A DNA stretch of 64,000 bases from a virus (IMGVR_UViG_3300025018_000091); one strand, 5' to 3'. Counted from the first letter of the stretch, positions 2,281 to 44,519 are shown. A program made the numbers and translations. Notes: generated from the sequence alone by a model not told the origin.

Positions 2281-5085
2281 TTATAGCTGTCCAAGACTAA
2301 CTTTGATGTAAATGAAGTTAACTGGATATGTTGGCTGTACTCTTACGGTTATATTCCATTGTGTTGGATTTGTTTCATCTTTCTTAACTGAGAAGTCTTT
2401 ATATGCTGTGATTAATCCTTGTGATACCAAAGCATTCAATAAGATGACTCCGCGAGTATTTAATACTGCTTGTGTTTCTTGGCTTTCTGGCAACCCAATG
2501 AATGGCGCAAATCCGGCTCGCAAAACCTTAGCAACTCTATCTCTAATAAATACTATTGAGATTTCTTGTTCTTCAGAATATCCACTCTGTGATGTTGTAA
2601 GACCCCAAACAACTCTTCCTCCACCAGAAACTGGTTGCAATGTAGTTACACCTGCTTGTGCTAAAGACTCTAGAACTGATTGTGAGAATTGCTTATTTCT
2701 AAGAATTGTAAATCCACCTAATGTCTTATTTGTTAATGGATTTTCAAGTCTTACATCAGCTGACTCATAACCTGCGGCTGCGGCTGCAATGTAGAACCCA
2801 TCAATTAATACATTTTCAGTTCCTGCTTGAACAACAATTTGATCTGGGTAGAAGTATACACATCTAAATGTATTTCCAAATGCATCTGCTACAGAGTAAT
2901 TAGCTAAGTCTTCAATATTTCCAGCTAATACTTCTGTAATATTATCTCCTTGAATTCCTTCAAGAACTCCGATATCTTCTACTGCAGCATCTTCAACACC
3001 AGTTAGATTATCCGGAGTTAATCCTGAGATAGCTCCACAAAACATGACTCTTTCCTTCTTATTTCTGATATTACTCATAGCCTTGCAGTGAGCTAATGTA
3101 TTCTGAAAAATTACGGAAATTGTTTGTTTTGGAAGAGGAACTACGATATCACATTCTACTGCCTCTAATGATTCTAGAGCATTAATCCATCCAGCATCAT
3201 AGAATGAAGCGTCTTTATCGTTAATTACCGTTACTCTTAATCTATATCCGTTAGGAACAACGTTATGATTCAATACTATGTATGAACTTTGATCTGCTAA
3301 ATCAAGAACTTCATAACGCATATCGTCTTCATTAACAACAGCCTTCTTAATTGTTACTTGATTTGCTCCCACTGCTATAATATCATACAATCCATTTTGA
3401 TTCTCAGCAGAACCATTAATCTGTAACTTATATAGAGCTGTAACACTTGGTACTGTACTAAAATCTACAGTTACACTATCTACTGTAGCTGTTGCAGTTC
3501 CAGTAATAATTACTAATTCACCATCTGTTCCAGAATAACCATCTAATGCTAATCCACTTGAATTACTAATTAATTCGAAAGTGACAGGATCTTCGTTAGT
3601 AAAATCTGAGAAATAAGGAGATGCTAATGTATGGAAACCTTGAGGGTCATCACTAGTCTTTACAGATAGTTTGCCATCAGATACTCCAGTTATCTCATAG
3701 TAACCAATATTTGCAGAATTTGTTGCATCAATAAGGCTTAAAGTCATTCCTACATAACTAGAATCAAATTCAACTGAAGAACTGAATGTGCCTCTGTTAT
3801 TAACTGCAGTATCGCGACCGATATATCCATCAAGTCCAGTAGCTAATGATTCATATCCAAGCTTAACTGTATAATAGTATGAATATCCACTAGGAGCGGG
3901 GACATCATCAAAGATAAATTGATTAGTAGTTGGTTCACCAACAGTATCTAACAAATAATAATCTAATTTATTTGGAAGAATCTGAGTTTCAACATTTGTT
4001 GTATTATTAGTTACAAAGAAGTGAATGTTAGAATTAAAATCTAAGGTTACACCAGCTGGTAATGGGAAGATAAAATTATCTGGATTTGTTGAGGTTGCCG
4101 TAACAGAGTCCTCTAATATATAAGAGGTTCTTCTTGGCATAGATGGAGCAGTTTGAACTGTCATAATAGCTGGGGCAGCATTAGCAAAAGCTAATTGACA
4201 ACCTAAGCTTAAATTATTATCAACACTTGGGAATCCATGACGAGTAGCCACATCACCAAGACCCTGTAATAAAACTGGGTCATTAAGATTTTCTGTTGGG
4301 ATATAAGTTGCAGTTAAAGAATCGCTACGAACTAAAACTCCACTTTCTACCATGACAGTAAAAGCGTCGCCTTCTCTAAATGGAGTTACAGAAACTCCAC
4401 CAACTTTACGTTCATAAATTCCAAAACTCAAGATACCATTCGAAACTACATTTCCATTTGCAGTCCAGATTATTGGATTACCATTTGCATCTAATTGAGC
4501 ACCAGATACAGAACCAAATGCAATAAACTTAGCTGTATTTTGAATAGGAGCATTTAAGGCATCACGAACAACAGAAACGCATCTGATAGACCAGGTTTCA
4601 GAGGGAGCATTTGCATCTACTAATGTTAAAGCTGTAAAATAACCATCACCGACATTTGTTGTTAATGGAACATAAAAAGCGCCGCCTTGATCAACTAAAT
4701 GAGCAGTTTGTAATTCAATTTGACCAGAAGCAATATCAATTCTATAATCATATTTATTACTAAATGATCCTGAACTAATTAGTTCTTCTGTTCCGACCAA
4801 CGGAATGCCATTTTTAAATAATTGGGTTCTATTTGAAATGACAGGATATGTTCCAAGCTGGAAGTGTCTGCCATCTGCACCAGAAACTGATGTGTAGGTT
4901 GGATTAAATCCATCTACACCACCACCCAATGCTTGGGAAACTAGAGTTTCATCAGCAGCACCTTCTCCCATTATTGCTGCTATGCGAGAACCGCCAGGAA
5001 TCGAAACTCCACGAGATTGGGTTACTACATCAGTAAAAACACCTGGTAGAACATTTGTTGCGCCTGGAATGTTAGCGTTAGCCAT
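2281..5085 (-). CDS. Contractile tail sheath protein
   Basis: 934 aa. N-terminal PGVFT motif. C-terminal sheath signature (LAQAGVTTL...VVWGLTT...EISIVFIRDRVAK...LVSQGLITAY...VQPTYPVNFIYIKV). Confidence 0.9.
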   Translation of the reverse strand: MANANIPGATNVLPGVFTDVVTQSRGVSIPGGSRIAAIMGEGAADETLVSQALGGGVDGFNPTYTSVSGADGRHFQLGTYPVISNRTQLFKNGIPLVGTEELISSGSFSNKYDYRIDIASGQIELQTAHLVDQGGAFYVPLTTNVGDGYFTALTLVDANAPSETWSIRCVSVVRDALNAPIQNTAKFIAFGSVSGAQLDANGNPIIWTANGNVVSNGILSFGIYERKVGGVSVTPFREGDAFTVMVESGVLVRSDSLTATYIPTENLNDPVLLQGLGDVATRHGFPSVDNNLSLGCQLAFANAAPAIMTVQTAPSMPRRTSYILEDSVTATSTNPDNFIFPLPAGVTLDFNSNIHFFVTNNTTNVETQILPNKLDYYLLDTVGEPTTNQFIFDDVPAPSGYSYYYTVKLGYESLATGLDGYIGRDTAVNNRGTFSSSVEFDSSYVGMTLSLIDATNSANIGYYEITGVSDGKLSVKTSDDPQGFHTLASPYFSDFTNEDPVTFELISNSSGLALDGYSGTDGELVIITGTATATVDSVTVDFSTVPSVTALYKLQINGSAENQNGLYDIIAVGANQVTIKKAVVNEDDMRYEVLDLADQSSYIVLNHNVVPNGYRLRVTVINDKDASFYDAGWINALESLEAVECDIVVPLPKQTISVIFQNTLAHCKAMSNIRNKKERVMFCGAISGLTPDNLTGVEDAAVEDIGVLEGIQGDNITEVLAGNIEDLANYSVADAFGNTFRCVYFYPDQIVVQAGTENVLIDGFYIAAAAAGYESADVRLENPLTNKTLGGFTILRNKQFSQSVLESLAQAGVTTLQPVSGGGRVVWGLTTSQSGYSEEQEISIVFIRDRVAKVLRAGFAPFIGLPESQETQAVLNTRGVILLNALVSQGLITAYKDFSVKKDETNPTQWNITVRVQPTYPVNFIYIKVSLGQL

Positions 5086-5123
5086 ATTGAATCCTTATCA
5101 CTCAGTTATGTAGCTTGTATCAT

Positions 5124-5171
5124 TAAAATGTATTAATATTCCTATTCCTGATGATATATTAATACATTTTA
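5124..5171. repeat. 16-bp perfect inverted repeat upstream of the sheath gene
   Basis: TAAAATGTATTAATAT (5124-5139), 16-nt loop, ATATTAATACATTTTA (5156-5171). Confidence 0.85.
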
Positions 5172-5213
5172 TTGTCTTCCCGTCTTTTCATCGGCTACTT
5201 AGAACCTGTTAAT

Positions 5214-6038
5214 TTACGAGTTTAGTAGCATATCTAACATATTTACTTCTGTATTGATTGTAATATTTGGTGAAACTGGTGCGATTGGGTTAGACAAATC
5301 TTCAAAAGTAGCAGTAAAAAAGATTGCGTCAATAATATTACCGACAGGTATTTCTCTTCTCCACTCCGTCCTTATATCTAATGTGATACTTTGCCTAAAC
5401 AACTTATCATTTCTATCATCTGTTTCAGATGGAGCACCAATAATTGGTGGTTTTACTATAATACCTACATCATATAATGAATCAACAGATATTTCAGCAA
5501 AACACATTCCTATTAATTGTGCTAAATCATCTCTTGCTCTTAAACTTCTTGACATAATATCTATTATAATTTGACCTTCCCAGGCTCCCGCAGTTACAAA
5601 ATATGCAGGAGAATGTACTATTGTTTTATTTCCATATCCATCTTCAAATACAACATCTTCATATTGAATTGCTCCTTTTTCTCTATTTATTGAAATTGGA
5701 ACATATTTAATACCGCCATTTTTTACTAAAATAGCAGGGTAATAAATGCCATCATGTCTATAATTTTCTCCAATAAACAATCTTGTACTTAAAAGATCGC
5801 CTAATAATGCAGAAGATCCATAAGAACCAGCAGGTATATCCGCGCCTGGTGGCAAATTTGTATGATCTGTTGTGTTTGGAAATCCCCATTGATCTCTGGA
5901 GAAATGATAATAACTATCTTTAGAGAAAAAATCCCTTAATGTAGCCAAAATTGTTTCTTTCGGATACACAATCATAGATGCTTGAATGATACTATAAATA
6001 TCATATAAGTCTGATCTAAAAAAATTGTTACTTGCCAT
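5214..6038 (-). CDS. Probable tail completion/terminator protein
   Basis: Immediately upstream of the sheath. Contains YYPAILVK...GAWEGQIIIDIMSRSLRARDDLAQLI, a tail-terminator-like pattern. Likely start is MASNN at 6038 (track gives 6059). Confidence 0.55.
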   Translation of the reverse strand: MASNNFFRSDLYDIYSIIQASMIVYPKETILATLRDFFSKDSYYHFSRDQWGFPNTTDHTNLPPGADIPAGSYGSSALLGDLLSTRLFIGENYRHDGIYYPAILVKNGGIKYVPISINREKGAIQYEDVVFEDGYGNKTIVHSPAYFVTAGAWEGQIIIDIMSRSLRARDDLAQLIGMCFAEISVDSLYDVGIIVKPPIIGAPSETDDRNDKLFRQSITLDIRTEWRREIPVGNIIDAIFFTATFEDLSNPIAPVSPNITINTEVNMLDMLLNS

Positions 6039-6888
6039 AATGTGCCAATCTGACACCATCTAATATATTTTGTTTGGCAGAGAGTGGTCTCAAATTATTC
6101 AATGCCCAACATATCTTAAAATTATCATCTTTCATAGAAGTATATGGTAATTTACTCTGCGGAATTATATGATCAATATTCCATTTCCAAGTAGAATCGT
6201 TATTATCATCCCAACTTTTATTATCATATTTACCCATATTATCCCAATTCATCCACGACTCAAACTGACTCTCTAAATGAGATTTAAGATCATTTATAGA
6301 ATATGGTAGATAATTCATAATAGATGTGTCCTTTTTAGATTTTTGTTTTCTTAATGCAGAATATATTTGTGTTGATATATATTTTCTCATCCTATATACT
6401 GGATCAGATTTCCTTCTATTAATTTGATATTTTCTTCTAGCTAATCTTATTGAATCTTTAGCATAAACCAATCGTTTTTTTTGCAAATCGTTGGCTTCTA
6501 ATCTATCACAATCAAGGCACACTCTTCTAAGATATTTACCTTGAGTTAATCTAAAATTATCTTTATTTAACGGTTTATTTTTGCTACACTTTTTACAAAC
6601 TCTATGTCCCGTTAAGGTTTCTGTCTGTTTTTTAGAAAACAATTTACCAGATTGTTTTTGATCATAACAAATACATGCAATACAATATGTACTAAATACT
6701 GGAAAATATAGATTTTCTTTACTTCTAATCATTTTCAAGTAAAAATTATCAGTATCTTGATGTTTTATCTTCATACATTTAGTGCATAATTTATCTCCAA
6801 TATCTTCTAAAGAAATTTTACCTTCTTTTAATAACTTTTCATATTCTATAGATTTCCGCTTCAATATTTTATAGTTTCTCATATCCAT
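6028..6888 (-). mobile_element. Free-standing HNH endonuclease gene
   Basis: Several CxxC pairs, a basic central region and a C-terminal WNIDHIIP...CWALNNLRPLSAKQN nuclease motif. Confidence 0.85.
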
Positions 6889-6937
6889 AATACTAAAATA
6901 TAGACAGATTTGAAGAAGTTATTAGATCCCATTTATA

Positions 6938-9900
6938 TTACCAACGATATTTAATTTCTATTTCATCAATTTCAAAAATCATATTTTGAGTAGAACTCTG
7001 GAACCAAGCACCTATCGTTAATACTAAGTATCCATTAACACTATTAACATAATCTGTTAATGTTCCGGCTGTATCATCTAATGTCATAACATATGTTTCA
7101 CCAGTATATGGTAGCAAATGACCAAACAATGCTCCTGCTGGATAATCATCTGATTTTGGTGTTCCTGTATTGATCTTATTTTGTACACTTAAAAATATAG
7201 ACATAGTAGATGTATCATTAGCATATGCGTTTCCAGTTGCTGTAGCTTTAGCGTAAACCAATTTTACTTCCGGAGGGATAATGTCAGTTAATTCGAATAT
7301 TAACTGATAAGCTTTTATGTAATTAGGTGCTGCTGCTGTGTAAAAATATACAACTTGCAAAGAAGAATATGTATAATCTACTGGTTTTGTTGCAACGCCA
7401 ACTGTCATTTGATTAATGTATCCATCAACAGTTGATACACCATCTAAAAGTCTTAATTTTCTGGTAATAGTTTGATTGATGTTTCTCTCTACAAGCCATC
7501 TTGCCGACACGTCAGTAGGCGCATATATTAGGTTTGTACTTGTTCCATTCTTATATGGACTATCTAAATAATTTTCAGTAATTATACCTGCAGAATTACT
7601 TCCATTCCAAGAGTTTGACTCATAGTAAGCAAATCCTATGTAATAATAGATATCGCTATCTTCTCTATATAGCTTATTGTGTGTAATAATCATATTAGTA
7701 CCACTATAAGCAATTAATCTTGTAGCAGTTGTACTAGAACTTACGCCCTTAACAGTATTGTTGGTAATAATTGCTGATGCCTTGCAGAAAATACCTCCAC
7801 GACCATATTTGTAGATATTTAATGTTGGTATGTACCAATAACCAGCACCAATTATATTTCCAGAGATCACACAATTAGAATTGTTACCATTTAATGGATT
7901 TCCATAACCGTCTACAGCAGGAGTGTCTGTATAAGTATTTGCATTTACAAATATAGCAAATTGGCTTCCATAAGCTTCACCATCTGTAGTTCCACCACTA
8001 ACTTCTCCATATGGAGTAAGATATGAGTAATAATATGCATTTAGATGGTTACCTATAATAGATAGCTTGCTATTATCTTCAAACGCAATACCAACATGTA
8101 TCCAGCTTAACTTATTATCTTTTATCGTAACAAATCCAGATGGGTAGTTACTCATTTGAGTAGATACGCCAGAAACTCTCTCTGATGTTACAAAATACTT
8201 TCCAAGATGATCTTGTGTTGCTATGTAATAACAAGTATTGTTTTGTATTGTTAGATTTGTTGACTTGCTATTAAAATTGTTTGGATTATATGTTGGAGGT
8301 GTATTGGCAAACTTAGATCCAGACCCAATCCAATATCCAATGGTGCCAACAATATTGTTAGAGATAACACAATTGATAGCCATTAATCCTGGGTATACCA
8401 TTCTATCATTAGCCGTAACAGATGTCATTACAATAGATTGGCTTCTATTAAAAATATTGTTTGAGATCAATACATTAGACGCTATTGGTTGTGGTTGATC
8501 TGCATCTTGTTCAGTCGATGAATTAATAATAGAGATTCCGTTTCTATTATCTTCAGATGAAGTATTTACATTAAGATTATTGAATCTACATCCGGTTACA
8601 CGAACATTATCTAACACAGAATTATATGTTGTTAATTCGAAGTTAACAAATGGGAATCTATTAGAACTTGCCGTTACTGGATTATAATTAAACGTATTGT
8701 CTTCAATAAAAATATCTTGAAGTGTAGTAGTAATTGAAGATTGAATATATCCATATCCACTATTAACTAAATTAGATGATGTATAAATACTTGTATTTAA
8801 TTGTGGATCATATGTTGATGTAACATTACAATTACGAACCGTAGTAGAATTTGATGCATTACTTAACTTTACTAATCTAATAAAATCTCCAGTAAACCAA
8901 GAATCTTTTATAACATTTTTTGTGCTATTTACAAAATTAAACACATCACCAGGATAATAAGTTCGTGTTGGATAGAACATTACATCAACAGAACTGTTTA
9001 TAAATTGGAAGTCTTCACAATTAGTTAATCTAAATACAGACCCACCACTACTTGTCAGTGTTGGGTACATTATATTTAAAGAACAATCTTTAAATACTAT
9101 ATTATTTGCATTTGCTAAATCTATAGCAATATTATTAGTCATGGCTATGCCAGGATCAATTGTAATATTACAATTTTCAAATCTTAACAAATTAGATTCT
9201 GAAGAGAATGTTAGTAAGTTAGAGAAATATAAGTTGATATTCTTAAAAGTTACATTAGATCCAATGTTAACTGTTCCAGTAAATTCTAAGTTTGCATCAT
9301 CTTTTCCATCTATAACTATTAATCCTCTATCATCTGTTCCAATTTTAAGATCTTCTGTAATTATAGTGCCATTTGGTTCTGCTAATGTAATAGCAGCGCC
9401 TTTAATAACTACAGACCCATTATATGAATTATTATAATTCAGCCAATTGAATATTGATGATATACTCTTAAAATTGCTCTGACCTTCTCCAGCATTGTAT
9501 CTTAATGGTAAGTTGGCATCAACATCAGTCACATATTTTCTTACATCACGCATTACTAACGTAGATGTTGCTACGCTCATAGTTACAGACACACTGCTGT
9601 ATACCACATACAATAACGTCAAATCTTTTCTATTATTTACGATATCAGAAAAATATGCAGCATCTAATTTATATGTCTGACCATTTAATGGATTATATGC
9701 TAAGAAAATTCTATCAGCATTTGGTGTACCATTAACATCATCATAATCTAATAATGGTATTGGCTGATACTCGCCCTTATCATTAACACATAGCGCCCAA
9801 TTTATATCATATTTATTCCCACCATAAGATTCTTTAATCTTTGGTATAGCTACAGTTTCTCCATTTTTATAGATGACCTTGCCGCTTACAAGCGCTGCAC

Positions 9901-12829
9901 CACCCTTAAAATAAATTTGGTTATCAGTTGGATTAGTTCCTACAAGAACTGTTTGTAAGCCAAATCCTCTTATTACTCCATTTTGATGAAGTAATTTATC
10001 TGATAGAGAGATGTAACTTAAAGCGGAAGTACTTAAATCTTTTTCACTAATATTTCCAAATTGTCTTTCATCACGTACATAATTAACTAAATTTGAAACA
10101 GTATTATGCTGACATGTAGCAATCATCATGATTTCATCATCTAATGCTAATGATGGGAACAATTGTATATCAATTAGTTCATCAGCTATAGGTAGAGACA
10201 ATGTAGAATTAGCATCAAACATAATATCAATATAATCAACATGAGTTTCATCATAAAATCTAACTATTTCACCAATTCTACCAGAGACTAATGGACCATA
10301 TTTTGTATAATTAGAACCGTCATATGATACAAGGTATCCATCAAAATTTCCATAAATATCAAACGATAACATTCTTAAAGAAATTTTTGTTACAGAACCA
10401 AATTGATATCCTCTTAATTTAGTAGAAATTCTAACTAAATCTAGTTTTGCTAGATTTGTTGTAGAATACAATGTTACACCATTAACGGTTGTTCCTCCAT
10501 TAATATGGATTCTTCCTCTTTCATGAGTAAATGTATTGGCATTTTCATCGATAAATACTTCAAAATGTCTCTTAAAAGATGTGACTAAAGAAACATCAGT
10601 TGCGGTTTCTGCATTAAAAGATACCGAATCTGAATTGAAGTATAATGCAAATTCACCAGAACTGGATGTAGTTGCTGGAGAAGAACCATATGCATGTACG
10701 CCGTCATAAACAGTAATATCAGTATCTGATCCACTTCCACAACCAAATGCAATTGATTTTATTATAAATCTACCAAAATCTATTGTTGCACCAGTGCCAG
10801 CAGATTGTATTACTAATGTTTTGCCTGGCTTTAATCTAGTTGCCGATAAATCGATTCCAGCAATACGATATGTAACTTCTACTCTATCACCATATGGATT
10901 TCTTGCAGTAATATCTGCTAACCAATATCCATCACCATAGCCATCTAATAATTGACCTGTTTCAAAAGTTAATTTATCTTTTTCAGTACCATTAACATAA
11001 TAATTTGCTTTTGTTACAGGTACAAAAATTTTTGTTGGAATTTGAGCTGATTCAGTTGTAGTATAAGGTGTCATATAAGGTGGGCTTGCTATAGCTGCTC
11101 CTGAACCTCCAAATCCAAGTGGGTCTGGAGCGACAAGTGGAGAAGATGCAAACAATCCTACAACATTATTTGGGAATGCCACACCAGTTGCAGTTTGATC
11201 ATAACTTCCAGATACAACAATTCCATTTAAAATAGAAAATGATGCATTATTATAACAATCAGACATCATTATACCAATTTCACCCTGATATGAATAAGCT
11301 ATAAATCTATAATTAAATCCTGGTTGTCTAAATTGGTTGTTAATAGCTTCAACTACAGATTCTAAAGTATAAGAACCTGGTGTAGCTCCTGCATTACCTG
11401 TAACATCGATAGCGGGAAGAATAATGTATCCATCTTGAGGGAAACCAGTAGGATATAAAGCTAAATATAATAGATAATGGGTACTGTCTAATAAATCAGG
11501 ATTAAATCCGAGACCTAATGCCATAGCATTACGAGGGTTGCCAACAATTAAGCTTGGCATAATTGATGTACCCATATCATGATTGACTGCTGCAGATGCT
11601 AATACACCAAATTTATTATTATTGAATAGTGATTTATCAATTCTTGCACTTGCATATCCATCAGAAGAATAGAACATATTCTTTCCAAAAATTCTAACAA
11701 TATATGTTGTTCCTGCTACAAATTTTTTCTCTTTTATAACATAAGGAACTTCAACTGCACCATGCTCACTGGTTGCAGTATAACTAATACGAATAATATC
11801 ACCTGGTTTTACTAAAGAAAATTGTGTATCAAATTCAAACGTAGTTAATACACTAGTAGATGGTTTAAATTCTATAATATCATCACCAGTATCAATATCA
11901 TCAACGGGAGCGCTGCCAGGAACTATTGCAAGAGGATCGTAAGTGCCCAACAAATATACTCTTACTGGAGTTGATGGAACGATAGCCGGACCTGCAATCT
12001 GAGAGCCTAACTTTGCAGATCTTGATATTCTAGAAATTCCATTAGAATATAAGTTTTGAATTCTTGTTCCATATAGGAAAATGCTAGATTCATCTATAAA
12101 TTGTGCAAATAATTGTAAATCATTGGCTGTATCAGGAATTACAGCAAACCTACTGGTATTTAGAAAAATACCTTCAGCAGGATGTGAATAATTGGCAGAA
12201 TAAGAGGAACCATTATTAGTAGTAATTGTATTGCTGGTAACATCTGTGCCGTCCGCAAATTGATGAACAAGTAATTCTGTATTCATATCATTAACTAAAT
12301 CATATGAATCAGAATTATCTCTATAAGTACCATATCTATTTTTTAGATATTTAATAGGATCCGCATTAACATCTATATGAGTAAGATCGTGACGATATAT
12401 GGCGCCACTCATATGTGGTTCTAATTTAATACCGCTAACTGAAATCCATCCTAAAGCAGTATTAATTCCAGTAACATTGTCTCTGATATAATTAAATAAA
12501 TCTCCAGTTCTATAATCAAGTCGTAATTTAGATTCTGGGATGTTTGCATTGTTTTCAATTTGACTATTTGTAATTGGTAATGTTACTAATCCCAAACTTG
12601 TTATAGCTGATGGATTTATAGCACCACTAGGAAGAAGAGCTACACCAATTCTTTGAGCAAGTGAGCCTGCAGTTCCTGATGCGCCTAAACCTATTTCATT
12701 TTCTATATTAAAAACAGCATCACGTACTGCATTTATAGCTTCACCACCAATTTCCGTTAAGTTATCGTTTACAAATGGTAAAGTTGTATCATCATCAAAA
12801 TCTGAAGGAAAATTACTCATATTCCACAC
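6938..12829 (-). CDS. Very large tail/baseplate-attached protein with a right-handed beta-helix (tailspike/depolymerase-like)
   Basis: 1963 aa. The C-terminal 40% has repeated parallel beta-helix strands (IVFKDCSL, IFIEDNTF, VLISNNIF, CVISNNIV, LTIQNNTC, LSIIGNHL, CVISGNII, IITNNTV). Likely ATG start at 12820. Confidence 0.7.
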   Translation of the reverse strand: MWNMSNFPSDFDDDTTLPFVNDNLTEIGGEAINAVRDAVFNIENEIGLGASGTAGSLAQRIGVALLPSGAINPSAITSLGLVTLPITNSQIENNANIPESKLRLDYRTGDLFNYIRDNVTGINTALGWISVSGIKLEPHMSGAIYRHDLTHIDVNADPIKYLKNRYGTYRDNSDSYDLVNDMNTELLVHQFADGTDVTSNTITTNNGSSYSANYSHPAEGIFLNTSRFAVIPDTANDLQLFAQFIDESSIFLYGTRIQNLYSNGISRISRSAKLGSQIAGPAIVPSTPVRVYLLGTYDPLAIVPGSAPVDDIDTGDDIIEFKPSTSVLTTFEFDTQFSLVKPGDIIRISYTATSEHGAVEVPYVIKEKKFVAGTTYIVRIFGKNMFYSSDGYASARIDKSLFNNNKFGVLASAAVNHDMGTSIMPSLIVGNPRNAMALGLGFNPDLLDSTHYLLYLALYPTGFPQDGYIILPAIDVTGNAGATPGSYTLESVVEAINNQFRQPGFNYRFIAYSYQGEIGIMMSDCYNNASFSILNGIVVSGSYDQTATGVAFPNNVVGLFASSPLVAPDPLGFGGSGAAIASPPYMTPYTTTESAQIPTKIFVPVTKANYYVNGTEKDKLTFETGQLLDGYGDGYWLADITARNPYGDRVEVTYRIAGIDLSATRLKPGKTLVIQSAGTGATIDFGRFIIKSIAFGCGSGSDTDITVYDGVHAYGSSPATTSSSGEFALYFNSDSVSFNAETATDVSLVTSFKRHFEVFIDENANTFTHERGRIHINGGTTVNGVTLYSTTNLAKLDLVRISTKLRGYQFGSVTKISLRMLSFDIYGNFDGYLVSYDGSNYTKYGPLVSGRIGEIVRFYDETHVDYIDIMFDANSTLSLPIADELIDIQLFPSLALDDEIMMIATCQHNTVSNLVNYVRDERQFGNISEKDLSTSALSYISLSDKLLHQNGVIRGFGLQTVLVGTNPTDNQIYFKGGAALVSGKVIYKNGETVAIPKIKESYGGNKYDINWALCVNDKGEYQPIPLLDYDDVNGTPNADRIFLAYNPLNGQTYKLDAAYFSDIVNNRKDLTLLYVVYSSVSVTMSVATSTLVMRDVRKYVTDVDANLPLRYNAGEGQSNFKSISSIFNWLNYNNSYNGSVVIKGAAITLAEPNGTIITEDLKIGTDDRGLIVIDGKDDANLEFTGTVNIGSNVTFKNINLYFSNLLTFSSESNLLRFENCNITIDPGIAMTNNIAIDLANANNIVFKDCSLNIMYPTLTSSGGSVFRLTNCEDFQFINSSVDVMFYPTRTYYPGDVFNFVNSTKNVIKDSWFTGDFIRLVKLSNASNSTTVRNCNVTSTYDPQLNTSIYTSSNLVNSGYGYIQSSITTTLQDIFIEDNTFNYNPVTASSNRFPFVNFELTTYNSVLDNVRVTGCRFNNLNVNTSSEDNRNGISIINSSTEQDADQPQPIASNVLISNNIFNRSQSIVMTSVTANDRMVYPGLMAINCVISNNIVGTIGYWIGSGSKFANTPPTYNPNNFNSKSTNLTIQNNTCYYIATQDHLGKYFVTSERVSGVSTQMSNYPSGFVTIKDNKLSWIHVGIAFEDNSKLSIIGNHLNAYYYSYLTPYGEVSGGTTDGEAYGSQFAIFVNANTYTDTPAVDGYGNPLNGNNSNCVISGNIIGAGYWYIPTLNIYKYGRGGIFCKASAIITNNTVKGVSSSTTATRLIAYSGTNMIITHNKLYREDSDIYYYIGFAYYESNSWNGSNSAGIITENYLDSPYKNGTSTNLIYAPTDVSARWLVERNINQTITRKLRLLDGVSTVDGYINQMTVGVATKPVDYTYSSLQVVYFYTAAAPNYIKAYQLIFELTDIIPPEVKLVYAKATATGNAYANDTSTMSIFLSVQNKINTGTPKSDDYPAGALFGHLLPYTGETYVMTLDDTAGTLTDYVNSVNGYLVLTIGAWFQSSTQNMIFEIDEIEIKYRW

Positions 12830-26358: not shown

Positions 26359-26359
26359 T

Positions 26360-26779: not shown

Positions 26780-26780
26780 A

Positions 26781-27911: not shown

Positions 27912-27914
27912 AAG

Positions 27915-30310: not shown

Positions 30311-30996
30311 TTGATTGCTTCCGAAATAAAACTATGCGTCATGCCTGCATCTACTATAACGTTAGCCATATTGGGATCTTTACTTTTGCCAGACATATTG
30401 TAAAATTCTATTTTCTTAAAATTTGCTTCAGACAAAAATTTGGTCATAGAACTTTTATTATACATACACATATGTCCTTCATAGAAATCCCAAGTACAAT
30501 TCTCGCCACAAGCGCCAAACATTAAATAAGATAACTGTAATGAAGGCTCTGCGTTACTATAAAATAGTGGTTGCTCACTAGCAAACTTATACATTTTATT
30601 ATTTATGTAAGCATCTATTAAAATATCTAAATCTGGAGTTGTTATCCTGATAACTCCACCAGGCTTTAGCATTCTATAACATTCTTTTAATAATCTTGGC
30701 ACTTCAAAAATTGGATTTAAATGTTCAATTACTTGACCAATATAAATAGAAGTAATACTATTATCTTCATGTTGCGCAAATCCTTGTCTTAAATCATGAA
30801 TGCGGAAATCAAAATCTTCGCCATTTTTAAGAAATTTTACACATTGTTGAACACTTTCGGCATACATGCTCAAATCACTATTTACACTTGTTCTTAAAAA
30901 ATGTAAATAAGTTGCGAAATCAGCACGATCATAGTTAATCCATGTTGTTGGTAACATAATTGGACCACAACCAATATTTAATCTTACTTCTTGCAT
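30307..30996 (-). CDS. Class I SAM-dependent methyltransferase
   Basis: RLNIGCG, HDLRQG, QVIEHL, YRMLKPGG. Confidence 0.85.
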   Translation of the reverse strand: MQEVRLNIGCGPIMLPTTWINYDRADFATYLHFLRTSVNSDLSMYAESVQQCVKFLKNGEDFDFRIHDLRQGFAQHEDNSITSIYIGQVIEHLNPIFEVPRLLKECYRMLKPGGVIRITTPDLDILIDAYINNKMYKFASEQPLFYSNAEPSLQLSYLMFGACGENCTWDFYEGHMCMYNKSSMTKFLSEANFKKIEFYNMSGKSKDPNMANVIVDAGMTHSFISEAIK

Positions 30997-30997
30997 C

Positions 30998-33445
30998 TTA
31001 TTTTCTATATGGAGTTGTAGGATAATATGGAATCATTGGATCAGTTTTTGATTTTTCAATCATATCATAAAACATCTTTTCCCAATCTTTAGCTAAAGAA
31101 TCTAATCCAAAATTCTCTTTTGCATATTCCTGTAATACTAATCTATCATCTTCACTATTATTAAACATTGCATTAATGACTGCGCTGATAAAATTATTCT
31201 TATATTCTGAAGTTGTCCAATCACCAGGTATTAATGTCCCTCGTTCTCCTACTGTTTCATTTAAAGCTGCAATACTTGATGTAACCATACGCAATCCAGC
31301 AGCTTGAGCTTCCATTGCAGTAATACAACTTGTTTCAGTAAACCAAGTAGGATGTATCCAACAACCTGCACTTAAAAATTCAATTGCCAATTCATCTTGA
31401 TTTACTCTATCATGATAAAAAACACCCAATGACTCCATATCTTTTATTTGTTTCTTAAGTCTACTAATTAAATCAGCCTGTCCCTGATCATATTGTGCAG
31501 AATATTCCCAATTTTTGAAACCATAAAATAAATGTAATTCTGCCTTTGGAACATGTGCCTTAATAGTTGTCCAACATTCTAGCAAAATTGGCCAACTTCT
31601 ATCAGGACTACTACTATTAACTGCTTTAAATCTATTTCTTGGAACTTTTTTATTAAATCTGTTTAAATCAATTCCATTTCTAGTAACTGATACTTGTTCT
31701 GGATTAATATTATGTACTCTAATGATATTATTTTTATGCCAATCAGATAACGCTAATACCTTATCTGTTTTTAATAATAATTCACTGGTCGCACCATTAG
31801 CAATTACATCATGAACCCATAACAATGTTACTTTTGCTTTTACATTATACTTATCTGCTAACATAGATGCATGACGTGATACAACCAAGATATCGCATTC
31901 TAAATTAGCATATTTTTCAGTTCTATAATATTCAACACGATCATAAATTCCTTCATTATTTCCACAACTATTATAAACACGAACTCTATGACCTAAAGCA
32001 GCTAATCTTTTAGCCTGCTCAATTAACATTGTTTCGCTTCCACCAATTCCAAACTGTTTTACACTTATTGGTGTCCAAATTTCAACTCCATTACCTGCAA
32101 AAAAGATAATATCAAGCTTACCACCAATAGGTTCGGCAATTGGTTCATCAACTTTTTGAGGCAATAATGCATCTTCATCAGCTTTGTTTTTTATTATAAC
32201 CTTTTTATCTATTATACTGGTCATTAATGATATTGATGCCGCATCTAATTCACCAATTTTTTCTAATTCTTTTATAGATTTGTAAATTTGACGATGTAAT
32301 AAGTTTATTTCATAAAGACGTTTATTTAACAAAAATGCCGGCTCAGTTGGTTCATATCTTAATCCTCTATTTACGCTATCTAAAGCCTCTTCTATTCTTC
32401 CAAGCTTATTTAATGCAAAATTATAGTATTTATGAATTTCATATTCTCTATCTGCAGGATTTATGAACAAAAGTGTTTTAGTTTCAGAACAACCAAGACC
32501 TAATTTAATGAAATAAACACATCTTTCCCAATTGCGTATTTCATCTCTTCCGCCCTGCTGTGCCAAATAATAGAATATTCGACCTAAAGCAAGATAGCCT
32601 TCTGCCCAAGATTCTTTAATAGCTACCGTTTTAAACGCCCACTTAAGTGCAGATTCATAATCTTGACGCATTTGATAAATATCAATCAATTTTAAGCAAG
32701 CCATTGCTCGCTCATCATCCCAACCAGATACATCTATATATTTTGATAAACGCTCAATTGCCTCATCCATTAAATTAGCATTATAGCACTCAAGACCTAA
32801 ATAATATAATTGGCGAGGGTCAGAATCTCCATGCTTTTCAAAATATGAACGTAAGATCCTTAAATTACGACCAAATTCTTGTACTTTTTTACTAAGATAT
32901 CTTTGATGTTTAAATAAAACATCTTCTACTGTTTGGAAAAAACAAGAAGGATCTTTATTAATCAATACTTCATGAACTGGATTTACCCAATGAAATCGAT
33001 CTTTATTATAAACTAAACGCTCTCTATAATGATAACATGTACATTTTCCATTGCTATCATATGCGTATTCATATGGAAACATTAAACATACTGATTTATC
33101 TTCACTATCTGGAAGATAATCTTGGATTATTTTTAATAGATTTTCACCTTTAGTAATAATATCATCTGCATCAACCCACAATACCCATGGTTGAGTTGCT
33201 AAATCAAATGATCTTTGTCTCGCTTGTGAAAAACTTTCAATTAATCCAGTTTCAGAATTATTGCAATCTGTATATACTTCAAAAATATCAGCATATTTTT
33301 TCGCAATTTCAGGAGTATTATCTGTTGAACCAGTATCAACAATAACAATTTCTGAAACATAATCCTTTATTGAATTCAAACATTGTTCTAATAATGGTTC
33401 ATCACGAACAATTAAACATAGTGAAATAGGCGCGCGTTCAATCAT
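30998..33445 (-). CDS. GT2-TPR-GT4 tri-domain glycosyltransferase
   Basis: ISLCLIVRDE, VDTGSTD and VDADD (GT2 DxD); TPR-like helices (RQLYYLG, EGYLALG); C-terminal GGSE, SSPDR, ETSCITAMEA (GT4). Confidence 0.9.
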   Translation of the reverse strand: MIERAPISLCLIVRDEPLLEQCLNSIKDYVSEIVIVDTGSTDNTPEIAKKYADIFEVYTDCNNSETGLIESFSQARQRSFDLATQPWVLWVDADDIITKGENLLKIIQDYLPDSEDKSVCLMFPYEYAYDSNGKCTCYHYRERLVYNKDRFHWVNPVHEVLINKDPSCFFQTVEDVLFKHQRYLSKKVQEFGRNLRILRSYFEKHGDSDPRQLYYLGLECYNANLMDEAIERLSKYIDVSGWDDERAMACLKLIDIYQMRQDYESALKWAFKTVAIKESWAEGYLALGRIFYYLAQQGGRDEIRNWERCVYFIKLGLGCSETKTLLFINPADREYEIHKYYNFALNKLGRIEEALDSVNRGLRYEPTEPAFLLNKRLYEINLLHRQIYKSIKELEKIGELDAASISLMTSIIDKKVIIKNKADEDALLPQKVDEPIAEPIGGKLDIIFFAGNGVEIWTPISVKQFGIGGSETMLIEQAKRLAALGHRVRVYNSCGNNEGIYDRVEYYRTEKYANLECDILVVSRHASMLADKYNVKAKVTLLWVHDVIANGATSELLLKTDKVLALSDWHKNNIIRVHNINPEQVSVTRNGIDLNRFNKKVPRNRFKAVNSSSPDRSWPILLECWTTIKAHVPKAELHLFYGFKNWEYSAQYDQGQADLISRLKKQIKDMESLGVFYHDRVNQDELAIEFLSAGCWIHPTWFTETSCITAMEAQAAGLRMVTSSIAALNETVGERGTLIPGDWTTSEYKNNFISAVINAMFNNSEDDRLVLQEYAKENFGLDSLAKDWEKMFYDMIEKSKTDPMIPYYPTTPYRK

Positions 33446-34352: not shown

Positions 34353-37300
34353 TTATCCATCCTCTACTTCAATAAATGCTGAAGATACCTGTACAAAATC
34401 AGTATCATTTGCGCCCGTATCTAATTTAGCATGTAATTCTACAGAACGCTCTCCAGCAGTTATTGTAAGTGGTCCAAGAGTCTTTGATTGTAATGTAGTA
34501 TTATTGTCAGTAATGTACCCGTCGATATAATATCCATCATAAACATCATATAACCTGATTGTGTATGTTTGTGCATTATCTACTTCACACGCTACTCTTA
34601 ATGTATATATAGCACTTCCAGAATAATCTGCAGTATTTAATATTCCAGAACCTAATCTACTATAAATACTAAGATTTGTAGCAAATAAACCAGCTGCTAA
34701 ACTTATTATTGCATTTCCTGCAGATCCAGTTGCTGATCCTGCTGGTCCCGTAGCTCCTTGAGGTCCTGTAGCTCCAGTTACACCGGCAACACCAGTGGCT
34801 CCTTGAGGTCCTGTTGCTCCAGTAACTCCCTGTTCACCTTGAGGTCCTGTTGCTCCAGTTACTCCGTCTATACCCGTAACTCCTTGTGGACCGGTTGCTC
34901 CCGTAACTCCATCTTGACCTTGTGGACCTGTAGCACCGGTTACACCGGGACTTCCTTGAATACCTTGAACTCCAGTAGCTCCCTGTGGACCAGTAGCACC
35001 CGTAACTCCGTCTATACCCGTAGCTCCTTGCGGACCAGTTGCACCAGTTACTCCGGGTGAACCCTGAATGCCTTGAGGTCCTGTAGCACCAGTTACTCCA
35101 GGACTTCCTTGAATACCTTGGAGACCTGTAGCACCCTGAGGTCCAGTTACACCATCTGCACCAGTAGCTCCTACTGATCCTGTAGCTCCTTGTGGACCAG
35201 TAGTTCCGGTAACACCATCAATACCAGTTGCACCTTGTGGTCCTATAGCACCTGTTACACCTGGTGATCCTTGAATACCTTGTATACCAGTAGCTCCTTG
35301 AAGTCCTGTAGCACCAGTTATACCAGGACTTCCCTGAATACCTTGAGGTCCTGTAGCTCCTTGTGGACCAGTAGCTCCCGTTACACCAGGAGATCCTTGA
35401 ATGCCTTGTGGACCAGTTGCTCCAGTTACACCAGGAGATCCTTGAATGCCTTGTGGACCAGTTGCTCCAGTTACACCAGGAGATCCTTGAATGCCTTGTA
35501 TACCAGTAGCTCCTATTGGACCTGTTGCGCCCGTTACACCAGGACTTCCTTGAATACCTTGGGGACCTGTAGCTCCTTGTGGTCCAGTCGCACCCGTAAC
35601 GCCAAGAGCAACATCCAAAATATCTAATGCAATTTGAACATTTGATGCAGCCGTTCCAACAAGAATTCCAGTAAATCCAGTGGTATCAACAGAAATTGAT
35701 GTTGCTGGATGAGCATTCGTTGCATCTCTATTAATTAAAGAATTATGATCTGTAGGAGAATAACTACCTACTGGTGTTGATGCATCATTTCTATAATCTA
35801 CAACATCCCTTAGTGCAGAATATTTTATAGTAGAAGAATATGCAGCCTTATATTGATAAATTAATCTATATATAAGTTTCATTTCCGGAGTAATTAACCC
35901 AGAAACAAATATAGATGCTGGGCTTGCTGCCGTTTGAGCATCAAATAATGATCCATAATAATTATCATGAGGAATAGATATAATTGGATCATAACTATCA
36001 TTTGATGCAAAAATCCAAACAACAAAAAAATCTGTGATAGGAACATCAGTTAATTTCCACCCAGTTCCACCACCAACATTCTCATTATATTGAGGAATAT
36101 TAGATACAGAACCCCATGGGAATGGGAATGAATTTGAGGCTATTTTTCTCCATGCAGGAGTTGTCCCAAATTTATATAGTACAGGGATTTGTCCAGGATT
36201 TGCTGGTAAAGTTCCGCCCAAATTTTGTTCATAAGGATCTGTGCCAGTTCCATTTATTATATCATGTTCTAAATCTTCATCATCAACTGTTCCGCTAGTC
36301 ATAGACACATAAGTATTAGTACCATCTGAGGCTGGAGTTCCCGTAGTAATTGCATTACTATCTAATCCTAATCCAGTTTCCCATCTCATTCCAAAATTAT
36401 CATGTAAATATTCATGAGTTGCGTTGGACATTACAATTCCATGACGCTCATCTCCAAATATAGTAACTGCGCCAGTATCATCTATATAAAGTAACGCTAT
36501 CAATGCGTCATCTAATATATTAGCAGTTGTATTTTCCGTTAAATATCCATCAACTGAAGAATAATAAACCCAATGCACACCTACAGAATTAGTTACTGGA
36601 ATAGATTCTGTACTCTTTATATATTTAACAGCACCAGCATAAATAACAAAGTTAGTTCCAGTTATCGTTAATGTCAGTCCAGACATTGATATTGAAGATT
36701 GTGTTCTGTCTTCAAATCCATTATTTATGACTTGAATTGGTCCTGTAGAACCAGTAACACCAGGAGATCCTTGGTTACCTTGCGGTCCTGTTGGTCCAGT
36801 AGCTCCTGTTGCACCTTGTGATCCTGTGGCGCCTGTAACTCCATCTGTTCCAGTTACACCTTGAATACCTTGAGGTCCAGTAGCTCCTTGTGGACCAGTA
36901 GCTCCTGGTTGACCTTGAGGTCCAGTAGCACCTGTAACACCATCTACACCTGTAGCGCCTTGCAAGCCAGTTACGCCTTGAGGTCCTGTAGCTCCAGCAG
37001 GACCTGTTGCGCCTGTTGCGCCTGTTACACCATCTGCTCCCGTTGGTCCAGGTTCACCTTGAGGACCTGTAGCTCCAGCGGGACCAGTTGCACCAGTAAT
37101 TCCTGGGGAACCAGTTGGTCCTGGTTCACCTGTTGGTCCAGCAGGACCAGTTACACCATCTTGACCAGCAGGACCTGTTGCACCAGCGGGACCAGTTGCT
37201 CCAGTTACACCGTCAACACCATCAACTCCTTGTGCTCCAGTTGGTCCAATTGGACCTGTAGCTCCAGCAGGACCGGTTGCTCCAGCGGGACCAGTAGCTC

Positions 37301-37610
37301 CTGTTACACCATCAACACCATCAATGCCTTGTGTTCCAGTTGCGCCTTGTGGACCTGTTACACCGGCAGGACCTGTTGCGCCAGCAGGACCGGTTGCACC
37401 GGTTACACCGGGAGATCCTTGAGGTCCACCAAAAGGACCAGTAACACCAGGAGATCCTTGTGGACCTTGCAAACCAGTAGGTCCAGCAGGACCAGTAGCT
37501 CCAGCAGGACCTGTTGCGCCAGTTGCGCCAGCGGGACCTGTAGGACCTGTGATACCGCCACCAGATCCAGATGGAACTCCTTTTATTTGGTTTGCATTAA
37601 CTTTGCTCAT
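34353..37610 (-). CDS. Large collagen-like fibre protein (two collagen blocks, two globular domains)
   Basis: 1085 aa with about 90 and about 95 Gly-X-Y triplets dominated by GAT/GVT/GPQ. Confidence 0.85.
34724..35603 (-). repeat. Collagen Gly-X-Y coding repeat, block 2
   Basis: Recurring unit [15 protein letters not shown]; 9-nt periodicity. Confidence 0.9.
36738..37547 (-). repeat. Collagen Gly-X-Y coding repeat, block 1
   Basis: [12 protein letters not shown] triplets; 9-nt periodicity. Confidence 0.9.
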
Positions 37611-38220: not shown

Positions 38221-38224
38221 AATC

Positions 38225-39214: not shown

Positions 39215-39220
39215 TTTACC

Positions 39221-41466
<2,246 letters not shown>

Positions 41467-41494
41467 TTTAGATTTTAATCAGCGTTCTAATAAA

Positions 41495-42508
41495 TTAGAC
41501 ACCGACTACTACAGACTTACGTCCAGCAGCAACACCACGTGGGTTTACGATTGCGATTCCGATGATTTCGGAAACAACCCAACCTAGCTTCAATTGCTTT
41601 GGTTCATCAGCTGGCAAGACTTCAATGTCTTGACGGATAGGCATAACACCTACGAATTCAGGATCAGCAGCGCCATAAATTGTTCCAGGTGGAACGATCT
41701 TGGAAACCATAATATCAGTTCCCCAAATGTGTGCATATAGACCGGTTTGTAGAACTTCTCTCATTGTGACGGGATCGAAATCTCCGCCGCCTGTGCCCTG
41801 TCCACCGCCTGCTCCCCACTTAAGGATATCGGTGAATTCATTAATGTTCATGAAATACTTGGTAGTCACAAGGTCCCAGCGGTCGATCTGTTGCTTGATT
41901 TCAACAAGGTCTCTCTTCAAAAGACCAGCGTCAGCGATGTCAGTCAATGTATTTTCGACAGAGGCTGCTGCATCTAATGCTGCGAATACGTTTGCGTCTT
42001 CTTGTGCCATCATTTCCTGGCGAGCCTTTTGGACTGCACGGTCAATGACGTTGAATCTACGACGCTTTACTTCAGCAATACGTACTGTTGGGTTTGCGTA
42101 GATTTCGAATTCAGGAACTACAACACGGTCACCGAATACACGGGATTCTGGACCAGTACCGTTGCTGGAAATAACAACAGCGGCTACATCGATATCTCTA
42201 TCGTAAGTAGGCGTTGCACCTTGTGGCAAAGGATCTACAACCAATGCTCTACGGGCAATTCCATGGTAGTCTAAGTTTCTGCGGATTGGGTTTGCCATAG
42301 CCTGAGCTAAAGCAATCTTTCCGTCTTGAGTCATAATAGCGCGGGAAATCAATTCATCGCGTCTTTCGTCACTTAATGCAGTTTGTCCAGCCATACCCAT
42401 ATTTGATGGTTGATTCTCTTCGAGAATAGCAGCATATTTAACAAGTGTTTGAAGGGCATCTTTGAGTGAGCTTGCATTCATTTGCCCACCATTATTAAAC
42501 ATATTCAT
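41495..42508 (-). CDS. Major capsid protein (HK97 fold)
   Basis: 337 aa downstream of protease/scaffold and decoration genes; pattern ALAQAMANPIR...RRALVVDPLPQG...VPEFEI...RRFNVIDR...AQED; GGAG SD; biased high-expression codons; strong terminator. Confidence 0.85.
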   Translation of the reverse strand: MNMFNNGGQMNASSLKDALQTLVKYAAILEENQPSNMGMAGQTALSDERRDELISRAIMTQDGKIALAQAMANPIRRNLDYHGIARRALVVDPLPQGATPTYDRDIDVAAVVISSNGTGPESRVFGDRVVVPEFEIYANPTVRIAEVKRRRFNVIDRAVQKARQEMMAQEDANVFAALDAAASVENTLTDIADAGLLKRDLVEIKQQIDRWDLVTTKYFMNINEFTDILKWGAGGGQGTGGGDFDPVTMREVLQTGLYAHIWGTDIMVSKIVPPGTIYGAADPEFVGVMPIRQDIEVLPADEPKQLKLGWVVSEIIGIAIVNPRGVAAGRKSVVVGV

Positions 42509-42659
42509 ATGTTATCTCCACAATTAAAGGAATTGTTTGCCAATTTCTTAGCAATACACATTATGTGTATGATAAAATATGATAATATTAGCTTTTTTAG
42601 AAAAAAAAAATACTGCACTTACTATACATATTATGATATAGTATAATCTGCATCTTAAT

Positions 42660-43811: not shown

Positions 43812-43824
43812 GCCGTGCTTTTTA
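43795..43824. terminator. Bidirectional terminator between convergent genes
   Basis: AAAAGCACGGCT ATTA AGCCGTGCTTTTT. Confidence 0.88.
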
Positions 43825-43853
43825 GATTATTCAATCAAAGATTATTCAATCAA
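43824..43853. repeat. Perfect 15-nt tandem duplication
   Basis: AGATTATTCAATCAA twice. Confidence 0.9.
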
Positions 43854-44519
43854 TTAGAACTGTGGATTGAAGTGGAATACTGCCCATGCATAAGTTCTAG
43901 TACCAAGAGCCGAAGCTAAGTAATTTGGAGTATTTACCAAAGAACCATTGGTTTCGAAGCTTACAAAGTGACCGACTACGATTGTGTTACCACCAGCAGC
44001 AGTACTTCCAACTGGAGTTAACTTTCCACCTACGGTTGCGGATGCTGGTACCCAAGTTAATGAAGTTCCAGTATCAAGAGCTGCATTTCCAGGGACTAAG
44101 CCGTCTGCTGCTTGGTCACAAGCTGCATCTAAGGTTACTGCATAAAGTCCTGGCTTATCCCAAAGAGTGACTTTGCCAGATCCAGTAGCGGTGTGAGGAC
44201 CTAAGACTGCGCCACCAGTTGCTACTTGACCAACTGTTCCACCGACTACAGATCCAAATAGAGTTCCATATCCAGTGATACCATCATCAGCTAACATCAA
44301 TGGACGAGCAGAGGTTGCTACGTTACGAGTAACAACAACTCTCTTTAAAGAATTAACATATCCATCAAATACATCATAAGCAGCTTTATCAGTTGCAGAA
44401 GTTGCGACAACAGATGCAAAAGTAACGACTTCGCCGCCCATAAGGGTTAATACTTCTGTATCAAGTCCATCGAACTGACCTAATGGTTGAACACCCGGTT
44501 GTAAAAGTTTTAGAGCCAT
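43854..44519 (-). CDS. Probable capsid decoration/cement protein
   Basis: 221 aa, Gly/Ala/Thr/Val-rich; the last head gene before the MCP apart from the inserted endonuclease; GSGKVTLW motif. Confidence 0.6.
   Translation of the reverse strand: MALKLLQPGVQPLGQFDGLDTEVLTLMGGEVVTFASVVATSATDKAAYDVFDGYVNSLKRVVVTRNVATSARPLMLADDGITGYGTLFGSVVGGTVGQVATGGAVLGPHTATGSGKVTLWDKPGLYAVTLDAACDQAADGLVPGNAALDTGTSLTWVPASATVGGKLTPVGSTAAGGNTIVVGHFVSFETNGSLVNTPNYLASALGTRTYAWAVFHFNPQF

Follow-up and report, generated by a model that had tools for sequence, protein, structure and literature searches.

The window analysed here is a stretch of 64,000 nucleotides of the viral sequence IMGVR_UViG_3300025018_000091, whose source phage is a member of an uncultured clade of huge phages, the contigs of which reach 481 kb; no close relative was found among cultured phages, the sole match being the sheath of an Eggerthella phage (29%). 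Genes for a predicted contractile tail, its fibres and the head stand beside a set of sugar-modifying enzymes in this window, and nine of its 59 main open reading frames (ORFs) encode proteins that carry the tripeptide Asp-Gly-Tyr (DGY), which is the subject of the present work. Translation of the 59 ORFs and counting of DGY in each of them gave 27 copies, all encoded on the minus strand within positions 2281-44519 and confined to the nine ORFs, which together comprise 5,532 amino acids (aa). The remaining 50 ORFs (14,935 aa), among which are the sugar enzymes, the CCA-adding enzyme, the nucleases, the major head protein and a tube-like protein, contain none. In this phage and its clade, tail, fibre and decoration proteins that face outward are enriched in DGY about 7- to 9-fold over chance. 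Two relatives in the clade, of 354 kb (g1) and 448 kb (g2), were fully read.

Expected numbers, calculated from the amino-acid composition of each protein itself, amount to 3.8 DGY for the whole window and to 1.6 for the nine DGY proteins. If tandem copies are collapsed, 21 independent sites remain (p 7e-10), and shuffles that keep every DG and GY count yield 8.5 +/- 2.3 DGY, with a maximum of 18 in 1000 (z 7.9). Overall, the doublet-preserving shuffles gave z values of 7.9 and 11.3; they err on the cautious side, since they retain the motif's own DG and GY pairs. Once collagen triplets are set aside, DGY is the top-ranking tripeptide of the window, and each of the other five orderings of its residues was counted 2-4 times. 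The residue following DG is tyrosine in 27 cases, phenylalanine in three and tryptophan in two, and NGY is found twice. Within the DGY-bearing proteins, DG without a following tyrosine was counted 37 times (35 expected), and GY without a preceding aspartate is at or below expectation; since the pairs outside the motif are not in excess, DGY is an add-on and not a by-product of many DG turns. Around the sites there is no flanking consensus beyond the three residues, and the variability of the flanks is above average, although not significantly. Six different 9-mers encode the sites, and these mixed codons place the signal in the protein and not in the DNA.

A sequence-only reading made earlier had given the 27 copies and their distribution over the nine proteins, which the translation reproduced exactly, and had roughly estimated one or two copies in about 5500 aa by chance, close to the computed 1.6. 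Its statement that sugar enzymes, CCA enzyme, nucleases and internal head proteins are free of DGY agrees with the zero count in the other 50 ORFs, and the enrichment survives the check for DG-turn bias that it had named. Two candidate origins of the excess were rejected, namely a DNA-level signal, given the six codon combinations and an excess that holds over a guanine-plus-cytosine (GC) content of 30-48%, and a shared repeated domain, given the lack of a flanking consensus.

The 934-aa ORF encodes, by its predicted structure, a contractile tail sheath with a conserved C-terminal domain: its AlphaFold2 (AF2) model (predicted local distance difference test, pLDDT, 85) retrieves the sheaths of phi812, T4 and phiCD508 in Foldseek with E about 1e-14, four PHROG sheath families match weakly, and the Pfam sheath matches are below the cut-off. 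Known sheaths have an inner layer made up of the core, with the inserted domains pointing outward. Across the sheath family, the insertion region (residues 141-619 of the window protein) holds 95 DGY versus 4.0 expected, and the conserved N- and C-terminal core holds 0 versus 3.6; at site 419, DGY is found in 45 of 50 homologues. In the model, D147 closes a loop and G148-Y149 begin a strand, DGY515 is close to a strand start, and DGY419 is inside a long strand. The tube-like protein, whose gene adjoins that of the sheath and corresponds in position to a gene of the relatives matching Phi812_tail_tube, has 0 DGY in 47 homologues; together with it, three small tail proteins are free of DGY (18-47 homologues for each of the four), and so are the orthologues of the major head protein in g1 and g2.

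The other DGY proteins differ in kind and are in part without any recognisable family. The single site of the 281-aa protein stands in the context VVFEDGYGNKT and reads DGY in 36 of 39 homologues, the rest having DEF, DSF or DNF; the protein has no family match, and a search of PDB sequences returned nothing significant. The large 1963-aa protein includes the stretch LDGYGDGYW, and among its 21 homologues DGY appears in 29 distinct columns, with a mean of 4.6 per homologue, site 633 being DGY in 18 and site 629 in 13 of them. The 522-aa protein, which has a weakly FN3-like N-terminus, Cys-x-x-Cys pairs and C-terminal His-x-His motifs, includes VDGYDGY; its site 220 is DGY in all ten homologues (mean 3.6 per homologue). 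Its AF2 model, built on a 14-row alignment, has a pLDDT of 40, too low for use, and a PDB sequence search found nothing significant. Family and PDB searches were likewise without a significant match for the 299-aa protein, which is 90% identical in g1 and 78% in g2, and its similarity to the 122-aa protein is not significant (E 0.086). In the gene of this 122-aa protein, a 15-bp unit is repeated 3.6 times, as GATGGCTATTATGCT, GACGGTTATTATGCT, GATGGCTATACTATT and GATGGCTAT, and the synonymous differences among the units leave DGY whole in every copy; the array was read directly in the sequence and was not detected by Tandem Repeats Finder, and the orthologues carry four and two copies. The 1085-aa protein is a collagen-like fibre (Pfam Collagen, E 4.5e-83, and many PHROG tail-fibre families) with triplets that are mostly G-x-T (GAT 80, GVT 40, GPT 25), and the 221-aa protein has orthologues with one DGY in g1 and two in g2. 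Among the labels given in the sequence-only reading, those of the sheath, collagen-like fibre, sugar enzymes, CCA enzyme, nucleases and major head protein stood, and the terms tail completion (281-aa protein) and decoration (221-aa protein) reflect gene position only. Table 1 lists the features and their coordinates.

Table 1. Features of the 64,000-nt window, with positions counted from its first nucleotide and residues numbered within each protein
Feature	Position	Strand	DGY	Details
Tube-like protein, 234 aa	1562..2266	-	0	Directly downstream of the sheath gene
Tail sheath, 934 aa	2281..5085	-	3	Residues 147, 419, 515 (window 4639-4647, 3823-3831, 3535-3543), all in insertion domains
281-aa protein	5214..6059	-	1	Residue 140 (window 5634-5642); upstream of the sheath gene; tail completion/neck by position only
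1963-aa tail/baseplate protein	6938..12829	-	7	Residues 390, 466, 629, 633, 830, 1640, 1802; no known family
522-aa virion protein	14682..16250	-	5	Residues 20, 159, 176, 179, 220
299-aa conserved protein	18316..19215	-	1	Residue 111
122-aa small beta-rich protein	19227..19595	-	5	Tandem array 19476-19529 (SDGYYADGYYADGYTIDGY); fifth DGY at residue 56
105-aa protein	22218..22535	-	1	Residue 29; one DGY kept in both g1 and g2 orthologues
Sugar-modification/glycosyltransferase island, 9 ORFs	23449..33445	-	0	Pfam
1085-aa collagen-like fibre protein	34353..37610	-	3	Residues 354, 1025, 1030, outside collagen stretches
CCA-adding enzyme	39221-40465		0	
344-aa collagen-like protein	40386..41420	-		Pfam Collagen E 6e-18; BclA_C 24.4 bits, under the 38-bit cut-off
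Major head protein	41495..42508	-	0	phrog_2522 E 5e-78
221-aa protein	43854..44519	-	1	Residue 52; near the major head protein gene; decoration by position only
Protein-tyrosine/dual-specificity phosphatase family protein, 249 aa	60029..60778	-		Pfam Y_phosphatase2 E 1.7e-11
Patatin-like phospholipase	22583-23452			E 7e-30
1190-aa protein	55534-59106		0	Head-maturation-protease-like segment, residues 106-216
Homing-endonuclease-like genes (three)	6028-6888, 17608-18135, 51526-52308			

Few of the sites are strongly conserved (sheath 419, 281-aa 140, 1963-aa 633 and 522-aa 220), and most are specific to particular lineages. A count of distinct alignment sites, by which the effect of inheritance is removed, gives 55 sites for DGY over four families, a 72-fold ratio to the expectation per sequence. 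Over 3,504 tripeptides, the same ratio has a median of 11.5, a 99th percentile of 25 and a runner-up of 33.7, so that DGY lies at about six times the median tripeptide, and the values of its near variants are all ordinary (DGF 8.4, NGY 11.8, EGY 2.4, DSY 9.7, DAY 12.1). In columns in which some homologues have DGY, the non-DGY cells differ from it at two or three positions in 629 cases and at one position in 142. Tyrosine and phenylalanine are normally exchanged commonly; in these columns DGF fills two cells versus 267 for DGY. The sequence-only reading had seen in the motif a short linear signal under selection that recurs in unrelated folds and is tandemly expanded, and this is borne out by the exactness of the tripeptide, the 55 distinct sites, the 15-bp array and the restriction to the sheath insertions.

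Among relatives, 28 loci of at least 15 kb, mostly around the sheath gene and with a GC content of 30-48%, contain 297 DGY versus 33.8 expected. In g1, where DGY is the most over-represented tripeptide genome-wide (87 versus 15.9 expected, p 2e-35), it occurs in about 30 proteins of the tail and fibre clusters and the remaining proteome is near expectation; g2 has 57 versus 17.7 expected. Under an identical design, 17 T4-like loci gave 26 DGY versus 19.9 expected, and the structural region of the Eggerthella phage gave 4 versus 3.9; the long fibres of T4 have none. The excess is thus clade-wide and not generic to contractile tails.

Several further observations were made in the same data sets. 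The fibre proteins densest in DGY are found in g1 (L066:12418-14268, 617 aa, 10 DGY) and g2 (L097:15566-19234, 1223 aa, 7 DGY); both have LbR_Ice_bind beta-roll or DUF5907 repeats plus collagen-like stretches, and at several of their sites DGY stands in a fibre context that recurs, P-x-x-DGY-(V/A)-L-(T/I). Genome-wide tripeptide excesses also include LAK (114 vs 37) and VRQ (39 vs 7.8) in g1 (L060-L077) and KAF (72 vs 25.6) in g2 (L078-L100), which may stem from repeated protein families. The T4 homing endonucleases SegB, SegC, SegD and SegE (T4 70-120 kb; L101) all contain DGY around residue 28-34, inside or close to the GIY-YIG domain; this family feature is separate from the tail motif and raises the T4 counts. 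Very long sheaths of 1,166-1,474 aa (P0082, P0094, P0099, P0103 and P0118) have 3-5 DGY each and are 32-36% identical to the window sheath in the C-terminal domain only, and the DGY trait may therefore also occur in a distant group of huge phages.

Some relatives encode the same tail proteins entirely without DGY. A 21-kb contig, L205 (IMGVR_UViG_3300033069_001735, the source of the sheath representative P0006), has 0 DGY in 6,272 aa, and it carries orthologues of the sheath (43% identity), the 281-aa protein (44%) and the 1963-aa protein (32%), plus the tube and two small tail proteins; at the conserved DGY sites it reads NAI, DVH and GNY. Two loci that have diverged about as far, L039 and L045, have about 10 DGY per locus. 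The sister clade, with sheaths 42-45% identical, is mixed: L208, G013 (44 kb) and G015 (24 kb), the latter two also labelled L222-L226, have 0 DGY versus 0.97, 2.15 and 1.28 expected, and G014 and G012 (77 kb) have 4 versus 1.33 and 10 versus 4.0. Pooled in a post hoc grouping, the four DGY-free contigs (L205, L208, G013 and G015) contain 0 versus 5.3 expected (p about 0.005), a hint of avoidance beyond mere lack of enrichment. As L205 and the sister-clade contigs keep the tail proteins with zero DGY, the folds do not need the motif, and the trait is gained or lost as a whole across unrelated proteins. That a nested lineage and parts of the sister clade retain these proteins with zero DGY is newly found here.

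The island of sugar-modifying enzymes encodes an oxidoreductase, a nucleoside diphosphate (NDP)-sugar epimerase/dehydratase, a C-methyltransferase, a cupin, GT1/GT4 enzymes, FkbM methyltransferases and an 815-aa GT2+GT4 fusion. Among the hypotheses of the sequence-only reading was a link of DGY to these adjacent glycosyltransferases, which the data do not support. In g1 and g2, homologues of seven of the nine island ORFs are lacking, and those of the epimerase and the 815-aa glycosyltransferase are distant and located elsewhere in the genome. The orthologous tail proteins there nevertheless keep the same DGY numbers, and no co-occurrence of island and motif was found: both relatives are equally rich in DGY without the island at that place. 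A GT2 enzyme of 356-372 aa does lie in g1 and g2, within fibre clusters that are rich in DGY and contain collagen-like genes; its two versions are 49% identical, and the N-terminus of the 815-aa enzyme is a 21-25% relative of it. Four other clade genomes with DGY-rich tails, G003, G004, G006 and G008 (97-100% complete), gave no match to this GT2, and 77 loci in other viruses that carry 34-44% homologues of it contain 60 DGY versus 66.6 expected. The neighbouring island is, judging from this gene content, probably not the partner for DGY. Glycosylation of the tyrosine by some other enzyme could still be at work, as each of the five clade genomes tested encodes some member of the GT2 or GT1 family.

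A more ordinary target than DGY is suggested by the position of the island, which is embedded among collagen-like fibre genes rich in G-x-T, one of which (344 aa) has a weak BclA_C match. BclA of Bacillus is reported to be glycosylated on its collagen region (Daubenspeck 2004, as cited in PMC9614988). By analogy, the island more probably decorates the collagen-like fibres in a BclA-like way. The window also encodes a protein of the tyrosine/dual-specificity phosphatase family, the phosphatase to which the sequence-only reading had pointed; it is conserved in g1 (74%) and g2 (48%). A phosphatase is unable to write a mark, and no kinase was seen.

Three other groups of genes were noted in the window. 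A patatin-like phospholipase gene adjoins the tail genes and is 78% and 38% identical in the two full relatives, and a 1190-aa protein with a head-maturation-protease-like segment is 75% and 62% conserved in them. Within the structural module there are three homing-endonuclease-like genes, one of the endonuclease VII/HNH type, another endonuclease and one GIY-YIG SegE-like; in g1, the closest relative, a counterpart at the same place is missing for two or three of them, which suggests recent mobile insertions.

DGY may be a lineage-specific surface tag that is read by a partner in trans, and this is the interpretation that we tentatively favour. Selection would make and maintain DGY as an exact three-residue unit on outward-facing virion domains, that is, on the sheath insertion domains, the neck or tail-completion protein, the large baseplate and fibre proteins, the small Ig-like proteins and a protein encoded near the head gene, and a partner, whose existence we infer, would read the tag in trans. 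Exactness, repeated invention, tandem copies, restriction to the outside and loss as a whole are expected of such a short tag. The exposed tyrosine hydroxyl could then be covalently modified, by a sugar or another group, through a cytoplasmic enzyme that acts on folded or assembling proteins, or DGY could serve as a docking or assembly-chaperone site; the former is ranked ahead, although it is in itself somewhat unlikely, and the latter is a little more doubtful still. A bolder version, possible but leaning towards the doubtful, is that huge phages have an undescribed modification or marking system that acts over the whole virion and recognises DGY, with tyrosine as the acceptor. Its writer or reader would be an accessory trait, so that lineages having it would pile up the tag on all their outward-facing domains and lineages without it would lose the tag fully and perhaps avoid it.

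The most serious rival, which we consider rather unlikely, holds that nothing reads DGY and that it is an intrinsic structural motif of a beta-hairpin or strand start, in which an Asp-Gly turn with a G1 bulge is followed by tyrosine and stabilises beta-rich outer domains. Several observations speak for it, most of which also weigh against a tag. Of the three sheath sites, which are the only DGY sites modelled with confidence, one is at a loop end and two are within strands or near their start, and in this predicted structure they also fit a purely structural hairpin motif. Subsets of sites resemble known turns, namely the Ig-like D-x-x-G-N (DGYGN) and the Kelch-like DG-x-IY (DGYIYLFG), T4 baseplate proteins show a mild DGY excess (six copies), and certain sites are conserved over long distances. 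Other points weigh against the tag only. The number of DGY per sheath is not under-dispersed (mean 1.9, variance about 1.0), which leaves a fixed number of tags unsupported, and no single glycosyltransferase is conserved with the DGY trait over g1, g2, the clade genomes and the GT2 loci. The sheath tree places L205 inside the clade, itself supported at 100%, but on a long branch, owing to which its exact position is uncertain. As to the structural rival, NGY, DGF and EGY, which are nearly as good for a turn, are not enriched, T4-like tails are without an excess, the orthologues of L205 and the sister clade dispense with the motif, and an adjacent DGYDGY or a (DGYxx)4 loop would be odd for a hairpin turn. 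Exactness, the preference for Tyr over Phe, re-invention, tandem amplification, outer restriction, absence from T4-like phages and loss as a whole are together hard to square with a purely structural turn.

Direct binding of a host surface polymer or a metal by acid-plus-aromatic contact points, giving weak multivalent adhesion over the outer tail, would account for the limitation to outward-facing domains and fibres and for the strong preference for tyrosine over phenylalanine; tandem arrays would increase valency, and the patchy distribution among lineages could track host switches. We nevertheless regard it as improbable, because three residues are too few for a defined site across unrelated folds, a flanking consensus is lacking, and the conserved copies in the neck or tail-completion-like protein are hard to account for in this way; the Ca2+-binding turn considered in the sequence-only reading fails in particular, since a DxDxDG-like metal context (Asp/Asn at -2 and -4) is present at 0 of 27 sites. 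Even less can be said for DGY as the tyrosine O-glycosylation sequon of the island glycosyltransferases or of the GT2-TPR enzyme, an explanation that we hold to be decidedly improbable even though a full set of sugar-modifying enzymes and several glycosyltransferases stand beside the virion genes, GT2 lies within the fibre clusters of two relatives, every clade genome tested has some glycosyltransferase, and tyrosine-linked glycans are known in S-layers (PMC2943079): DGY numbers in g1 and g2 are unchanged without most island genes, the GT2 does not follow the motif through the clade or into other viruses, and the collagen-like fibres around the island offer it another target. Raw counts are inflated by tandem copies and inheritance, and Gly and Tyr are somewhat abundant in the proteins with DGY, but chance, composition, shared ancestry of repeats or a DNA-level signal as the whole explanation is hardly credible in view of the 21 independent sites, the shuffles, the distinct-site test that takes out inheritance, the dissimilar flanks, the mixed codons and an excess that persists over the GC range.

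Should a partner indeed read or modify the tag, this would be the first mark defined by sequence that covers the outer surface of a phage tail, and a simple, countable signature for a surface-decoration system of uncultured huge phages, which could bear on host recognition, particle stability and the evasion of host or environmental binding. With DGY-free lineages that have the same proteins, the search for the reader of the tag becomes a comparison of gene content, and biochemistry can use the same lineages as natural negative controls. This analysis also tells the motif apart from the sugar island beside it, two things merged in earlier readings. Literature searches found no account of a DGY motif in phages, nor of any DGY sequon, and 'Asp-Gly-Tyr' returned nothing relevant, which matches the statement of the sequence-only reading that no description of such a motif was known.

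Among known systems, beta-hairpin turns with Asp-Gly are of type I' or of type I plus G1 bulge, and the Ig-like turn is D-x-x-G-N. DGY resembles them in having DG at a loop-to-strand junction followed by a strand-forming residue, and in some sites that read DGYGN. Asp-Gly turns accept N or D and many residues after the glycine, whereas in the present case the enrichment is limited to DGY and to a single set of lineages, neither N for D nor F for Y shows the tolerance of a turn (NGY, DGF and EGY being unenriched), and orthologues free of DGY exist. The filaments of BclA on the Bacillus exosporium are similar to the island and its surroundings in their collagen-like G-x-T repeats, the weak BclA_C match and the adjacent deoxysugar, methyltransferase and glycosyltransferase genes; the differences are that the BclA_C match is below the Pfam cut-off, that the island is known from genes alone and that a phage fibre, not a spore nap, is concerned. 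Glycosylation of capsid and tail was reportedly described in mycobacteriophages by Freeman and co-workers in 2023. Virus-encoded glycosylation of the virion is represented by the glycans of chloroviruses and mimivirus (PMC9614988), which share with the window the presence of a virus's own sugar enzymes beside structural genes and a coated particle surface, but in which the glycans are demonstrated and other target sites are used, and the sugar island of the window is not conserved with the motif.

Sequon-directed glycosylation uses motifs such as Asn-X-Ser/Thr or, in the O-glycosylation of Bacteroidota, D-(S/T)-(A/I/L/V/M/T). In the present case, no transferase co-varies with the motif, neither the island enzymes nor the fibre-cluster GT2 co-occurring with it as a dedicated enzyme would. 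Tyrosine itself is O-glycosylated in the S-layers of Paenibacillus and Thermoanaerobacter (PMC2943079), where the reaction is co-secretional and concerns two to four sites of one protein, whereas DGY would be met during cytoplasmic assembly at dozens of sites in many proteins. With sequons, DGY shares a short consensus on exposed parts, enriched 7- to 9-fold and in the sheath confined to the insertion domains; like them, it is a linear signal of three residues on surface proteins, recurs in folds that are unrelated, and comes and goes between relatives, and its hydroxyl-bearing residue is not exchangeable for the nearest neighbour.

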